DNA from: Elsinoe ampelina
Lineage: Eukaryota
Length of the DNA: 64,000 nucleotides
Assembly: GCA_010093995.1 (NCBI GenBank)
Contig: ML992502.1
Span: forward strand, 985,001 to 1,049,000
Reading direction: 5' to 3'
Of the stretch, positions 17,212 through 64,000 are shown in pieces. Every line of letters begins with the position of its first letter. Position 1 is the stretch's first letter. Below the pieces are notes generated by a model. It worked only from the letters and a program-made list of their open reading frames with translations, was not told where the DNA came from and did not search any database. Position numbers and translations under genes: made by a program.

Positions 17212-17251
17212 NNNNNNNNNNNNNNNNNNNNNNNNNNNNNNNNNNNNNNNN
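17212..17251. other. Assembly gap (40 N)
   Basis: Run of N preceded by a G run. Confidence 1.
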
Positions 17252-56751: not shown

Positions 56752-57381
56752 GGTTTTGTGTTCATGGTGGGTTGGTGGTTGGGTATGCTGGGAAGGGGAA
56801 AGGTTTGGGATGGTGGTGTACGGATTGCGCGAGGTGGCCAGGGATGGACCAGGACAGGCCGAGGAAAAGGCTCCAAAAGGCGGGTTGGGGCGTGGTATAT
56901 TTCTAGCATGGCATGGGCAAAGGCAGGAGGCTCGAGCACAGGAGACAGCATGGGAAGCAGCGATATCACCGCGACGGCGTTCTGGGAGTGTATTGGCGAC
57001 AGGCACGCGCACAAAAATCTGTCCTGGGAGATGGGGGGAAGCATTGTTTAGTTCTGCCGTCCTTGTACTTTTTTCCTCTTTGAGATGACGATAACGAAAC
57101 ACATTACATTACCACCCATTGTGATTATTGGAATGTAAGCTTTTGATCTGCAAGAATGGGTGAATGATGGATCGTGATTCGTGAATTTTGTATTACAGCA
57201 TGATTGATGCTCGTTTCTTTTGGTCTCATGATAAGATATGCTTCCCTGGCCCCTACCCCTCTGCCGATAGATATGGCTGATGACCTTGACCGTCCCAGCC
57301 AAAGTATGCGCCCTTGAGCTCCACAGGAAAGCAATTGGACCCGCCAGCTTTTGTGCATCTGATATCATCAAGCGCCACCTT

Positions 57382-59363
57382 ACTACCAGCTGCTCCTTGA
57401 CCTGGTAGTAATTTCTCGTAATACCTACCAGCTCCCCCCTTCATCTGGTAGTACTTCCCTGCAATGACTACCAGCTTTGCCATGACCGGGTAGTATTAAC
57501 CAGCCATGACTACCAGCTCACAACATGACAAACCCCTCGTCCGTCTCTTCGGCGGCTTGTTCAACTTCCAGACTGACCTCCACCATGTCCGAGTCGGGCG
57601 TCGCAGGATCCTGTGGACGTGTCTTGGTCTTCGGCTGTGGATCGAGGTCGACCACGTCCCAGCTCTCTTGCACGGGGGCCGGTGCTTTGCTTGAGCTTGC
57701 AGCTTCTGACAGATACGATGGCGCTGAGTCGCCATAGGTAGATGGCGCGGGATGGATGGGGAGATCTTGGGTTTCCGGGAAGGGCGCTGAAGAAGTGACT
57801 ACTGGTGCTGTAGCTTTGTCAGGACCTGGTAGTACTTCTGTGCCGATGGCCGGGATGTCAGGGACCGGGTCGAGTTGCGCTAGGAACCTTCGGACGGCTT
57901 CGCACTCATTGTCATGGTTACTACTAGAAGTAGCATGCCTGGTAGTTAGTGCGTGTGGTAGTGGCACGTTATCCAGGCTGAACATCTGATCCAGACCAGT
58001 CCCGGGTGTGTCCTCGAAGAGACCCATCACAGCAGCTTCGGCGGCAGCAGATTCGGTAGCGGCAGCTTGGTCGGCAGCAGCCTCGTTCATGCTCGCAAAG
58101 AGGTTCCACTTTTCAGGGCCATGCCAGCCCGGCTTGTAGTTAGATGGCGCTCCTGGCGGCATCTGGGAGGACATGTGCACGGGGTGCTGGTAGGATACGG
58201 AACCCGAATGCTGGTAGGACTTCGACGTCGGGTTGCGCTGCTGGTAGGATTCGGGGACCAGATCTGAAAGGCGGTCATGAAGGGCGGCTACATCTGAAGC
58301 ATCCTGTTCACTTCTGCGACTGGACCTGGTAGGATATGGCTGGAAGCGGCTGGACTTTGTGAAACGCTGAAACTGCTCGAGCTCCTCGTCCTCGCCGGGG
58401 ACAACGAGTCCCTCAGAACCACCCTTTTTGACCTTGACTTTCTCAGGCACCGGTTCGGTTCGAGCCTCTGGCGTACACAAGAAGGATTGGACAAGCGCTC
58501 TACGGGCTGGTGACATCCTTGATAGAGCGCAAACAGTCCTACCAGGGTGCAGTGGGTGCTCGGTGTCGACGAGCATGAAGGGGTTAGGTTCTGCAGTTTT
58601 CAATGTAACACCGACCTGGACGAAGGTTTGGGCGCCCTCGTTCCTGTGCACATGAGACATATTGGCAACGCAGAGATCCTGGTGGAACACGGGATGGGTG
58701 TTGAGCAGGTCAATGAACTCACGATCGAAGAGTAGATCGTGTTGGACGAGGTTTGTGGCGCAGTAGCCGAGTAGAGAGCTCAGTACCTTGGTGTCATCCT
58801 GGTAGTACTTGTACGCGTATCTGACTGCAGCAATCAGGTCGAGGGGCCGCTGCCTGGTGTAACAACTCGATTCTAGCGATTGGACCACGGACATGTAAGC
58901 TTGGTCTCTCAGCGGTTCTGCATCGTAATTGTGCGCGATACGATACACCTGGAGATGTGTGGTGAGGGGTGTCTTCGTCGGATCCTGGCAATGTGCTGGT
59001 AGGTATTCCAGCGTGTACGAGTATCTCAACAGTGCTTTTGCAGCATCCGGAGTGAACTCGTCGTCTTCCTCAAAGTAACATGCTTCGATCCCGCGAGCTG
59101 TGGGCTCGAAAGAGGCTGCGAGCAGCGGGCATGCCTCTTCAACTACCAGAATCTCGATGTTGCTGGTAGTATCTTTCTGGCCTTTGTGTTTCACTACCAG
59201 ACATCCTGGTCGGCGGATCTCGTTCGGCTTGATGACTTTCAGGAAATCGGTACTATCCATTGGTAGGAACTGGCAAGAGGTACTACCAGGCGGGAAGTCG
59301 AGCTTGGCTTGATCGAGCTGAATGAAAAGTGGTTTGGTAGTTGGCGGGAAGGAGTACTACCAG
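57382..59363. repeat. Dispersed homotypic cluster of CTGGTAG/CTACCAG (20 exact copies)
   Basis: 7-mer starts at 57383, 57402, 57425, 57445, 57468, 57510, 57826, 57939, 58187, 58211, 58241, 58326, 58539, 58799, 58996, 59143, 59163, 59194, 59283 and 59357. Confidence 0.9.
57518..59260 (-). CDS. Divergent BTB/POZ-like domain protein with long disordered C-terminus
   Basis: 580-aa ORF with CPLLAASF...EDDE...AKALLRYSYTLEY...HLQVYRIAHNYDAEPLRDQA, the fungal BTB pattern L.Y.YT..Y...H..VY.lA.kY...L. Confidence 0.75.
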   Translation of the reverse strand: MDSTDFLKVIKPNEIRRPGCLVVKHKGQKDTTSNIEILVVEEACPLLAASFEPTARGIEACYFEEDDEFTPDAAKALLRYSYTLEYLPAHCQDPTKTPLTTHLQVYRIAHNYDAEPLRDQAYMSVVQSLESSCYTRQRPLDLIAAVRYAYKYYQDDTKVLSSLLGYCATNLVQHDLLFDREFIDLLNTHPVFHQDLCVANMSHVHRNEGAQTFVQVGVTLKTAEPNPFMLVDTEHPLHPGRTVCALSRMSPARRALVQSFLCTPEARTEPVPEKVKVKKGGSEGLVVPGEDEELEQFQRFTKSSRFQPYPTRSSRRSEQDASDVAALHDRLSDLVPESYQQRNPTSKSYQHSGSVSYQHPVHMSSQMPPGAPSNYKPGWHGPEKWNLFASMNEAAADQAAATESAAAEAAVMGLFEDTPGTGLDQMFSLDNVPLPHALTTRHATSSSNHDNECEAVRRFLAQLDPVPDIPAIGTEVLPGPDKATAPVVTSSAPFPETQDLPIHPAPSTYGDSAPSYLSEAASSSKAPAPVQESWDVVDLDPQPKTKTRPQDPATPDSDMVEVSLEVEQAAEETDEGFVML

Positions 59364-60538
59364 GGGAATATGTGAGACTGGACTGGTTTGGCGCGTGAGG
59401 AATGAGGTGATTCTGAGCTGCAGCTGAGGCAGCGGCGAGTTCTGCTAATTATACAGCCCGCGGTAGCTTGCTGAGACGATGGCAAATGTCACAAGACGGC
59501 AACGTTTGTGAATGCTTGTGATGTTGGTAGAATGAAGTGAAACGCTGATAGTTTGTGCAACAGCACATGAAGATTGATTGACAAGAAGAAATTCAGGCAG
59601 ACTCACCTTGGAAGCTTGTCGAGGTCCCAGAACAGTCATGCGTCGAGGCTCCAAAGGTGGGAGCTCCCGTTCAGCTACAGCACAAGGAGGGGCAGTCACG
59701 GCCCACATCTCACTTCTCAATGGAGAGTAAAATGAGCCTCTGCACCGCCGCACTCATGCCACACGCGTAGACTAGCCACAGTCGGTCATGCCGCTATCAC
59801 TTCAAGTATCACCGAAGCAGTCAGACCAGTTGAGGCACAGTCATTGCCTTTGTATCCAGATTGTTTGTGACGGAAGGTCCGAGTGCTCACTTTAAACACC
59901 ATGCCATGGGTCCGCAGATCGTCAGGAGCAAGCGAAATGATGAATCTTCAACGAACCCCGTCGTTCTCACCGGAGCATTGGGGCCGGAAACTCTATTGAC
60001 CGCAGGGATCCACCGTTTTTCTTTTTTGGCTCCACCCGCATGAACCTGAACTGAACAGAAGCCGGAAAGACAGTTGGGACTTCCATTGATAGCACGGCCC
60101 TCTTTCACATGCACGACATTTCCTATTCCTTTCTCCTTTTGCGCCACCGACATGTCTCGTCCATCACTTGTTGAGGAGACAGCCATGCGGTGGAAAACGG
60201 CATGTTGGCGTGGGATCTTCCAGTCCATCGTCATTGACCCGGACGCCTCCCGCCGCATCCCCCAGGCCAATTTCTGGTCCTGATCGTGGTCCCTGAACCA
60301 AGGGCTGGAGATGATGGACCCCAGATAAACTCCACACAACCACCTCCCACGCCCTGTTCTCCTACGCAACACATCCCCTTGACGTGCGGCTCAGCGATTG
60401 ATGCAATTGAGCGTGCATGGCCTACGCAGCATGATCACACCCAAGGGGTAGCTGCAAGCCAATCTTTGTGGCTGTCCGACTTGCGATCTTCCCTTCCTCC
60501 AGCCTCAAACATCGCGCCGTCGTCGTCATACCCAGTCA

Positions 60539-62948: not shown

Positions 62949-64000
62949 CTAGAACCCCGTGTCATACCCTTGGCCGATCGTGCTCAAGCTCTTCTGGTCG
63001 GCACTGACGAGATTACCGACATGCTGACCCGGCGCTCCAGCCATGTACCAGGCATACTTCTCGACGAAAGTTGCTTGAGTATCGAGGTGGGCAAACACAT
63101 TTGTCACAAAAGCATTCACCTCCGCATCAGTCCCAGAGTTGAGGCCGAATTCAGTGATCCAGATGGGGTAATTTCCGCCGCCGACAGTGTCGTGCGTGTA
63201 GTACAGTTGGCTGTAAAAGCTGTCGAAATCGTTGGGTCCGCCGTACCAGTGGATAGGAATGAAGTCGATCTTGCAGTCCGAGCACGCTGCCAGGAACTTG
63301 ACCAGCCAGTCATTGCCAATGTTGAGACCTTGTCCATTGGTCACGGCGGGGGCACCAAGTCTGAACCCTTGCGCCTTGAGCGGAGTGATATACTGGCGGT
63401 AAGCTGTCACTGCATCAGCGACGCTCATACACGAAGAACCAGCGCCATCAACGCAGAGATCTGGTTCGTTGAATCCGAGAACTTCGGTCCATCCTTTTGC
63501 CTTGGCGGCAGCAACGTTCGTGGCCCACACATCGGTGAGGTCAGACGCTGCGCTCCACAACATAGGCACGAACTGCAGGTTGGGATGGAGGGGCGCTTGC
63601 TGGGCGCCGAGCTTGGGATCATGAGGCGCACTGAACCAGTTGTATGCCCAGCTGACTTTGGATGTGCCAGCCGAACATGTGGTTGAAAAGAAATTCGTGA
63701 CGGGCGTGTAGTTGTAGGCGAGGCCTCGTTTGCCACTACCAGCAGTTGGACGACAGCTGGAGCTTGTGGTCGTTGTGGTGCTTGAAGTAGTTGTTGTGGT
63801 CGTTGTGGTCGTCGTTGGTGGACTTGTGGTTGTCGTTGTGGTTGTCGTAGTTGTAGGGCGAGTCGTGGTCGTTGTGGTGCGCGAAGTAGTTGTTGTGGTC
63901 GTCGTAGTGGTCGTCGTTGGTGGACGTGTGGTTGTCGTTGTGGTTGTCGTAGTTGTAGGGCGGGTCGTGGTCGTACTGGTAGTCGTCGAAGAGCTGGTAG
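62949..64000 (-). CDS. GH128 (Asl1-like) beta-1,3-glucanase with Thr-rich stalk; 5' end beyond the window
   Basis: KRGLAY...SWAYNW...FVPMLW...LGFNEPD...LGAPAV...DFIPIHWY...PIWITEFG...VEKYAWY. Confidence 0.92.
   Translation of the reverse strand, partial: TSSSTTTSTTTTRPTTTTTTTTTTRPPTTTTTTTTTTTSRTTTTTTRPTTTTTTTTTTSPPTTTTTTTTTTSSTTTTTSSSCRPTAGSGKRGLAYNYTPVTNFFSTTCSAGTSKVSWAYNWFSAPHDPKLGAQQAPLHPNLQFVPMLWSAASDLTDVWATNVAAAKAKGWTEVLGFNEPDLCVDGAGSSCMSVADAVTAYRQYITPLKAQGFRLGAPAVTNGQGLNIGNDWLVKFLAACSDCKIDFIPIHWYGGPNDFDSFYSQLYYTHDTVGGGNYPIWITEFGLNSGTDAEVNAFVTNVFAHLDTQATFVEKYAWYMAGAPGQHVGNLVSADQKSLSTIGQGYDTGF
63766..63966 (-). repeat. About 100-bp tandem duplication encoding Thr-rich linker
   Basis: Two near-identical units (63766..63864 and 63865..63966) encoding TRPTTTTTTTTTT(R/S)PPTTT...TS(R/S)TTTT. 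Confidence 0.85.

Follow-up and report, generated by a model that had tools for sequence, protein, structure and literature searches.

Exact copies of CTGGTAG[T/G] across a BTB-like gene of Elsinoe ampelina suggest an undescribed binding array laid over coding sequence

Why should one protein-coding gene carry the same seven-base word 20 times, in both orientations and nearly always without error? The question is raised by a 64,000-nucleotide stretch of the Elsinoe ampelina genome (assembly GCA_010093995.1, contig ML992502.1, positions 985,001 to 1,049,000 of the forward strand), referred to here as the window, in which a gene for a BTB-like protein is covered with the word CTGGTAG and its complement CTACCAG. 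All positions below are those of the window. We describe the array, its limits, its relation to the encoded protein and its evolution, and we weigh the explanations that could account for it. So dense a covering points to a possible binding array, as yet undescribed, on top of a coding gene. Our preferred reading, which we put forward tentatively, is that selection has built a multivalent array of a general word for protein recognition here, with duplex DNA the more likely target.

Counted on both strands, the whole window contains 43 exact copies of the word; dinucleotide shuffles of the window gave a mean of 5.77 copies (standard deviation, 2.62; maximum, 13), and none of 100 shuffles reached 43. 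An earlier note on this DNA, made from the letters alone, had placed 20 exact 7-mers between 57382 and 59363. All 20 were recovered, with start positions from 57383 to 57510 or from 57826 to 59357, against an expectation of 0.26 to 0.31 copies for these 1,982 bases under Markov models of order 0 to 1. The remaining counts in that note were also borne out: both orientations occur (11 copies on the plus strand and 9 on the minus strand), every copy extends to CTGGTAG[T/G] (13 with T and 7 with G), near-copies are present at 57487, 57955, 59260, and 59334, and the rest of the window, for which about 20 copies had been estimated by eye, has 23. The locus thus has many copies within about 2 kb, beyond composition-matched chance, as a homotypic cluster does. 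Each of the 21 possible one-mismatch 7-mers occurs zero to two times in the cluster, 11 times in total, compared with 20 exact copies, which shows that the word has been kept almost exactly. Other 7-mers and 8-mers have no comparable clustering; the next unrelated words reach at most nine per 2 kb and belong to low-complexity CT-rich runs or to a protein repeat.

Several known words were compared with the array and rejected. Origin by repeat-induced point mutation from CTGGCAG was ruled out, since it would require 20 earlier copies of CTGGCAG. Splice-site and branch-site words and the complements of U1 and U2 snRNA cannot explain seven invariant letters followed by T or G in both orientations; helix II of 5S rRNA and the D-arms of tRNAs do not account for such a word, and the same failing applies to the E. 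coli Chi sequence (GCTGGTGG), the Ace2/Swi5 site ACCAGC, and the CNGG loops of Smaug/Vts1. The Drosophila Zelda site CAGGTAG, which the earlier note had offered as an analogy, found no support: it has six copies outside the cluster and none inside.

The limits of the array were compared with those of the transcript (Table 1). Contigs covering the gene were found in three runs typed "RNA?", which is the index's guess, and they give approximate transcript ends. One contig (run X4) spans 57224 to 59548, has adapter letters at its end, and leaves the flanking spacers uncovered; two overlapping pieces in a second run (X5) span 57175 to 59554, and two pieces in a third (X3) span 57201 to 59737. No splice-like joint was seen in the contigs of any of the three. 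On this basis the 5' untranslated region (UTR) measures about 290 nucleotides and the 3' UTR about 320, and of the 20 copies the 5' UTR has 2, the coding sequence 12, and the 3' UTR 6. All 20 lie within the contig span (57175 or 57224 to 59548 or 59554), so that the word is repeated inside a transcript, as are the motifs of determinant of selective removal (DSR) elements, and about 185 bases at either transcript end are motif free. The intergenic spacers, 597 bases upstream and 174 bases downstream, contain neither an exact nor a one-mismatch copy. The earlier note had the cluster ending near the limits of the gene; with the array wholly within the transcript and the upstream spacer empty, we find the same.

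Table 1. Coordinates of the word array and of the gene that carries it
Feature	Position	Strand	Basis or detail
Word array, 20 exact CTGGTAG[T/G] and 11 one-mismatch 7-mers	57383..59363	both	word counts
Approximate transcript, intron-less, ~2.35 kb	57200..59550	-	RNA-like contigs
Coding sequence, 580 aa, 12 motif copies	57518..59260	-	open reading frame
3' UTR array, degenerate 42-base tandem, directly after stop codon	57382..57519		3.3 copies, 72% matches
Three SYQ copies, 24 and 30 bases apart, short local repeat	58185..58254	+	starts 58187, 58211, 58241
Three copies in first codons, alternating orientation, LVV/TTS/LVV	59143..59201		59143 -, 59163 +, 59194 -
5' UTR units, two of 31 bases	59260-59290 and 59334-59364		74% alike

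The gene product consists of an N-terminal region of about 220 residues with a predicted BTB(-BACK)-like fold and a fast-evolving C-terminal half. Close relatives of the 580-residue protein were found in Elsinoe only. The E. batatas orthologue is 79% identical overall and 96% identical over the first 270 residues, and those of E. australis and E. fawcettii are 54 to 61% identical over the N-terminal domain; a HMMER search with the N-terminal 270 residues gave 181 homologues. Pfam returned no family at an E value of ≤1 for the window protein and none at ≤0.01 for 12 homologues. A structure model based on an alignment of 78 sequences reached a predicted local distance difference test (pLDDT) score of 85.4 and superseded a poor single-sequence model (pLDDT, 46.5). 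The best listed Protein Data Bank (PDB) matches of the model are all BTB or BTB-BACK chains (KBTBD2, KEAP1, SPOP, and vaccinia A55), and they are weak, with E values of 1.1e-3 or worse and, for the single BTB domains, template modelling (TM) scores of 0.55 to 0.62 by target length. The source annotation of the orthologues reads "BTB domain-containing protein." The gene had been called BTB-like from its sequence, and we regard this as a fair label for the modelled product. The gene also contains a 15-base tandem at 58030-58085 (3.7 copies, 70% matches), which encodes an Ala/Glu-rich stretch (AAADQAAATESAAAEAA) on the coding strand and is kept in E. batatas.

Given that 12 copies lie in coding sequence, the array might reflect the protein or its codons. 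The coding copies read LVV (twice), TTS, YLP(A), YYQ, PGR, PTR, SYQ (three times), TTR, and LPG, that is, nine tripeptides in five combinations of frame and orientation, with SYQ alone occurring three times; the earlier statements that the word is read in differing frames and is not a protein repeat are both consistent with this. A comparison with codon-shuffled sequence, which had also been proposed, was made with four nulls of 5000 samples each, scored on the 12 coding copies. Keeping the protein and drawing codons by window usage gave a mean of 1.05 copies (maximum, 5), drawing them by the gene's own usage gave 1.51 (maximum, 6), permuting synonymous codons gave 1.49 (maximum, 6), and shuffling codon order gave 0.41 (maximum, 4); no null sample exceeded 6. 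Tripeptides compatible with the word are realised as the word in 12 of 17 cases in the window protein, compared with 7 of 122 in 23 other long open reading frames (ORFs). The five frame and orientation combinations, together with the excess over all codon nulls, identify the cluster as a feature of the nucleotide sequence.

The history of the coding copies was followed in an alignment of 60 homologues, which covers six sites of the conserved N-terminal domain. A tripeptide that permits the word is restricted, at five of these sites, to the window protein and E. batatas; at the YLPA site, one further sequence, the distant homologue P0037, has permitting residues. The residues of close relatives at the six sites are LII or LIV, VIS, SIV, YLPP, HYK or HYP, and PEK or PDR. 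The middle Thr of TTS stands at a position that is hydrophobic throughout the 57 other rows with a residue there, mostly Ile and otherwise V, L, F, or M (counted by eye). Since the derived residues are confined to two species, the word was evidently acquired through substitutions that changed amino acids on the branch to the window species and E. batatas, and since the coding copies lie in ungapped orthologue alignment, they arose by substitution rather than insertion. Compatible tripeptides number 17 in 580 residues in the window protein and 17 in 571 in E. batatas, 5 in 800 in E. australis, and 6 in 613 in E. fawcettii; the window protein has 2.9 per 100 residues, compared with 1.12 in the other ORFs of the window. 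The window protein and its E. batatas orthologue each have private compatible tripeptides in the C-terminal half, which is what site turnover at constant density would look like at the sequence level, and the third SYQ copy is without a counterpart in E. batatas.

A relative represented by contigs of about 95% identical DNA (X12; divergence, about 4.7%) allowed a comparison of the sites themselves. All three assessable sites (57826, 58326, and 58799) are unchanged; the site at 58539 is too close to a contig end for judgement, and the X12 contigs omit 58912-59447 and the UTRs. An unaligned tail of 21 letters beyond 57915 in X12 holds an exact ACTACCAG. It resembles window positions 57903-57923 in 17 of 21 letters by eye, where the window has ACTACTAG and E. 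batatas encodes SGS. A test of whether orthologous genes keep the density of the word while its positions turn over had been proposed earlier; the evidence bearing on it is the protein-level density and turnover of tripeptides in E. batatas and three sites in the DNA of X12. X12 also differs from the window by the replacement of 125 bases at 58120-58246, where the three SYQ copies lie, by 83 other letters, by a 24-base deletion at 57717, and by a CCG insertion behind 57864; judged from the sequences, the disordered C-terminal half appears to evolve through in-frame indels.

The word is also found outside the locus, where its 23 copies form no cluster but stand out from background and follow the same rule. 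T or G is the next base in 21 of the 22 outside copies that have a following base, whereas the control words [A/G/T]TGGTAG have no such preference (C, 6; T, 11; A, 10; G, 6). A choice of G or T at one position, A or C on the opposite strand, is a degeneracy of a kind found in protein-DNA sites. The enrichment is mainly in noncoding sequence: beyond the locus, 28.9 kb of non-ORF DNA carries 15 copies, a rank of 6th of 7497 7-mers, and CCTACCAG and ACTACCAG are both among the ten commonest 8-mers of that DNA; the 23 other ORFs (10,876 residues, 32.6 kb) have 7 copies, compared with 3.6 expected. The outside copies are found on both strands, close to where ordinary housekeeping genes start or end. 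A search for partners at a fixed spacing gave six pairs within 60 bases, three of them at 24 to 25, against an estimated three or so expected, and was unconvincing. Three CTGGTAG copies stand at the edges of a repeat of about 100 bases at 63740-63980, the last of them cut by the window end. This repeat abounds in GTCGTTGTGGT-type words, so that ACCACAA and ACGACCAC cluster in it, and it belongs to a minus-strand ORF (62952-63998) whose product has the catalytic core of a glycosyl hydrolase.

The papers in which the 7-mer or 8-mer is printed as a word do not concern such an element, judged by titles and the openings of abstracts, in agreement with the earlier note, whose author knew of no fungal element with this consensus. 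The Elsinoe literature on genome motifs or promoters offered nothing relevant among the matches listed, which, as far as the available parts of the records go, concern host plants or are reviews. A metagenome scan with the pattern ACTACCAG-N12/13-CTGGTAGT gave at least 119 loci, 87 of them with nothing beyond the pair itself. The richest among the matches listed has 7 copies in 4 kb, and of seven loci examined among the richest or densest, five represent short repeats of simple or bacterial type. For the two richest, the site lists show 7 copies over about 2.4 kb (L051) and 5 over about 2 kb (L005). No fungal counterpart was seen among the matches listed, in a collection that is poor in fungi and uninformative on relatives. 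Unrelated metagenome contigs at loci L115, L118, L117, and L096 show tight palindromic or tandem arrangements of CTGGTAG and CTACCAG, for example, as a repeat of CTGGTAGtgcgaCTACCAG, and are probably bacterial repeats.

Part of the array is itself repeat derived. The earlier note had held that the array is not a tandem repeat or transposon; this fails for 57382-57519, where alternating ACTACCAG and CTGGTAGT arms, six exact copies and one near-copy, form the 42-base tandem, and it holds for the rest, as the remaining 14 copies are not tandem, the flanks of most copies are unrelated, and no transposon features were found. Each of the two 5' UTR units consists of a near-copy TTGGTAG[G/T], 14 bases, and then ACTACCAG, with the same start-to-start distance of 23 as in the 3' UTR units. 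The arrangement CTGGTAGK-N14-MCTACCAG thus occurs five times, three in the 3' UTR and two in the 5' UTR, with a one-mismatch left arm in three of the five. The opposite arrangement, with 12 to 13 bases between the arms, occurs four times, once within the first codons of the gene. Nine copies outside the 3' UTR tandem, the SYQ repeat, and the 5' UTR units have unrelated flanks, and these, together with the local duplications, imply at least about 13 independent origins. As RNA, the 3' UTR array is predicted to fold into three hairpins with a minimum free energy (MFE) of -58.6 kcal/mol (z, -3.8), and 0 of 200 shuffles fold equally well; Rfam gave no match above threshold, the best reaching 20.4 bits against a cutoff of 80. 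In the third 3' UTR unit (57484-57516), the left arm is the near-copy CGGGTAGT, and a repeated GCCATGAC gives an alternative 11-base-pair stem in the predicted fold, so that hairpin potential is retained.

These hairpins bring in an explanation at the RNA level, in which word and complement pair within one mRNA, or an RNA-binding protein reads them, such that hairpin arrays in the UTRs, possibly with long-range or intermolecular helices, control the stability, translation, localisation, or clustering of the message. We consider this improbable, though it draws on a good deal of what was seen: the array is confined to the transcript between empty spacers, orientation alternates strictly in the UTRs through the five spaced units, the 3' UTR folds far better than its shuffles, and the mRNA carries 9 CUGGUAG and 11 CUACCAG, a near-balance that pairing needs, just as pairing would demand the excess of exact over near-copies. 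The MFE fold of the 2351-nucleotide transcript has five motif-motif helices, two of which link the 5' UTR to the 3' part. The native coding sequence, however, folds no better than 22 synonymous permutations of it (z, +0.12), eight-base helices are weak, and the eighth base is unpaired in several units, as where the G-type arm at 57425 stands opposite T-type arms on both sides. Near-copies in the 5' UTR give a C-A mismatch on the mRNA strand, a reader of single-stranded RNA would require one orientation, and the copies elsewhere have no fixed strand with respect to the gene closest to them, whether in its 5' or its 3' flank. About equally improbable in our estimate is a neutral process in which the UTR repeats seeded the word and short-patch copying, by micro-conversion or template switching at inverted repeats, spread exact copies without function. 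Local duplications in the 3' UTR, the 5' UTR, and the SYQ region fit such copying, as does the great excess of exact copies, and quasi-palindrome correction produces perfect inverted pairs, here of 8 bases. Some distant copies moreover share 12 to 13 identical bases, with CCTGGTAGTACT at 57825, 58798, and, reversed, 59353, and GCTGGTAGGTATT common to 58995 and, reversed, 57420; these extended identities are weak evidence, because by a rough estimate some three pairs sharing at least 12 bases are expected among 190. What neutral copying fails to explain is the T/G-restricted 8-mer common in noncoding DNA elsewhere, the sharp stop at the transcript limits, and the exchange of a hydrophobic residue conserved in the family while the gene was retained.

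Another candidate is the remnant of a mobile element that carries the gene or is inserted in it, be it a miniature inverted-repeat transposable element (MITE), a foldback element, or a DNA transposon with subterminal repeats. In its favour, copy density peaks at the ends of the unit: the 3' end has 7 exact or near copies within some 135 bases, and the 5' end has 5 exact and 2 near ones within some 220. Both orientations are present, as is the case for subterminal repeats in hAT and CACTA elements. Against it, the two outermost copies (57383 and 59357) are both on the minus strand, which means that there are no terminal inverted repeats; neither these nor a target duplication was seen at the locus, dispersed copies of the unit are absent from the window, blastn of both UTR arrays against the window gave short matches only outside the locus (11 to 56 bases; E value, 0.19 or worse), and the coding copies sit in ungapped orthologue alignment. 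We therefore give a mobile element very little weight. Chance, codon usage, or a protein repeat gets hardly any: it can point to the peptide repeat of the three SYQ copies and to the above-average supply of compatible tripeptides, but the nulls rule it out, with at most 6 copies in four codon nulls against 12 observed, no window shuffle at the observed count, 8 copies lying in UTRs, and the high share of compatible tripeptides realised as the word.

The selected array of a protein-recognition word is favoured over local copying on three grounds, namely, that the 8-mer is common in noncoding DNA elsewhere under the same T/G rule, that conserved residues were replaced to make the word, and that density persists with site turnover in relatives. 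Strictness, the choice of G or T, the balance of orientations, noncoding enrichment, derived residues, and turnover, taken together, make selection for a protein-read word the best explanation. The recognition word, (G/C)CTGGTAG(T/G), often followed by A, may be a general noncoding cis-element of this Elsinoe genome that came to be written about 20 times over one transcribed gene body, in both orientations, in the lineage shared with E. batatas. Local duplication would have supplied copies in the UTRs, and point substitutions, some of them replacing amino acids, would have created those in the coding sequence. We propose that one sequence-specific, putative protein reads the word, most likely on duplex DNA; inverted pairs with a fixed 14-base spacer, 23 bases from start to start or about two helical turns, would suit a dimer or binding to the same face. 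Such an array could hold many copies of the factor on the gene and so control elongation, termination, or chromatin state, or alternatively it could act as a sink that titrates the factor away from the scattered sites. While the excess and strictness of the word, its transcript limits, the derived residues, and the wider enrichment are observations, protein binding, DNA rather than RNA as the target, and the effect on the gene are what we infer from them. A stronger version, which we think unlikely, holds that the nucleotide sequence of a coding gene was itself selected as a binding array, a genome-wide noncoding word having colonised a transcription unit to make a hub or sink; the word would have spread by adaptive synonymous and amino-acid-changing substitutions and been kept with turnover across species, as a decoy like the fission-yeast meiRNA laid over a working coding sequence.

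Several points weigh against the selected DNA array. Chief among them is that all copies lie downstream of the apparent transcript start, with none in the 597-base upstream spacer; confinement of this kind is unusual for an array of DNA sites, and a role in the RNA or one linked to transcription would account for it no less well. A full-length RNA-like contig of the gene is present in three runs, which makes a permanent block to transcription unlikely. The independent origins number nearer 13 than 20, several copies being products of local duplication. Conservation in X12 is weak and not significant, with about one change expected by chance over three sites, and E. batatas was compared at the protein level, its sites being judged from protein alone. 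The enrichment outside the locus comes from a single 62-kb stretch, and when all of the sequence beyond the cluster is counted, the word drops to 74th of 7961.

A functional array would clearly show a regulatory code taking precedence over a protein code: six sites in a conserved domain, one of them at a hydrophobic position conserved in the family, would have been altered to spell a word in DNA or RNA. The 8-mer would then serve as a bait for finding a sequence-specific factor of Dothideomycete fungi. The locus is a natural test bed, with 20 sites that can be recoded synonymously. Should a local copying process be responsible instead, it would be an unusually clean example of the spread of a motif within one gene.

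The surroundings of the gene are ordinary core-genome genes, with no repeat-rich or accessory compartment. Neighbours encode ThiF, SARAF, PIG-X, and sybindin proteins, a helix-loop-helix factor, an Ofd1-type oxygenase, a major facilitator superfamily transporter, Vps10/sortilin, and a GH16 enzyme, as well as AMP deaminase, an aldo-keto reductase, a GRF zinc finger protein, a CDH-cytochrome protein, a UAA transporter, and pantothenate kinase. At 17212-17251, 40 consecutive N mark either an assembly gap or sequence that was withheld.

Among known systems, homotypic clusters of transcription factor sites resemble the array in that a single short protein-recognition word recurs in either orientation within 1 to 2 kb, far more often than by chance, and in the turnover of single sites at a maintained density; the twelve Su(Hw) sites in the 5' UTR of the gypsy insulator element are one example of a homotypic binding-site cluster. 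The array differs in lying over coding sequence (12 copies) and UTRs (8 copies) rather than a promoter or enhancer, with none upstream of the transcript start, in having copies that are nearly all exact rather than degenerate, and in a reader that is putative. Reb1 and TTF-I belong to a Myb-type family of roadblock or general regulatory factors, the Reb1 core being TTACCCG, with sites in promoters and behind genes. A strict word of 7 to 8 bases, in either orientation and near gene starts and ends, is common to Reb1 and the Elsinoe word, and CTACCAG agrees with TTACCCG in five of seven letters; Reb1 sites are not known to form an array of 20 within a gene that is expressed. Minisatellites, repetitive extragenic palindromic (REP) sequences, and MITE-like palindromes are matched by the 3' UTR part, a 42-base tandem whose inverted 8-base arms fold back, whereas only 6 of the 20 copies are in tandem, the others have unrelated flanks and stand in frame in conserved coding sequence, and the window has no dispersed copies of the unit. 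In fission yeast, the YTH protein Mmi1 binds clusters of the DSR core motif U(U/C)AAAC on meiotic mRNAs (PMC3352096, PMC4077057), and meiRNA, with numerous copies of the motif, acts as a decoy or bait for Mmi1 (PMC3352096). The likeness lies in a short word repeated within particular transcripts and in one RNA whose numerous copies serve as bait for the reader; the consensus differs, however, and the DSR is read on RNA in one orientation, unlike the 9:11 of the Elsinoe array. By analogy, the array would seem to work like a homotypic binding-site cluster yet departs from the usual location of one. We conclude that it is real, statistically extreme, and evolutionarily directed.

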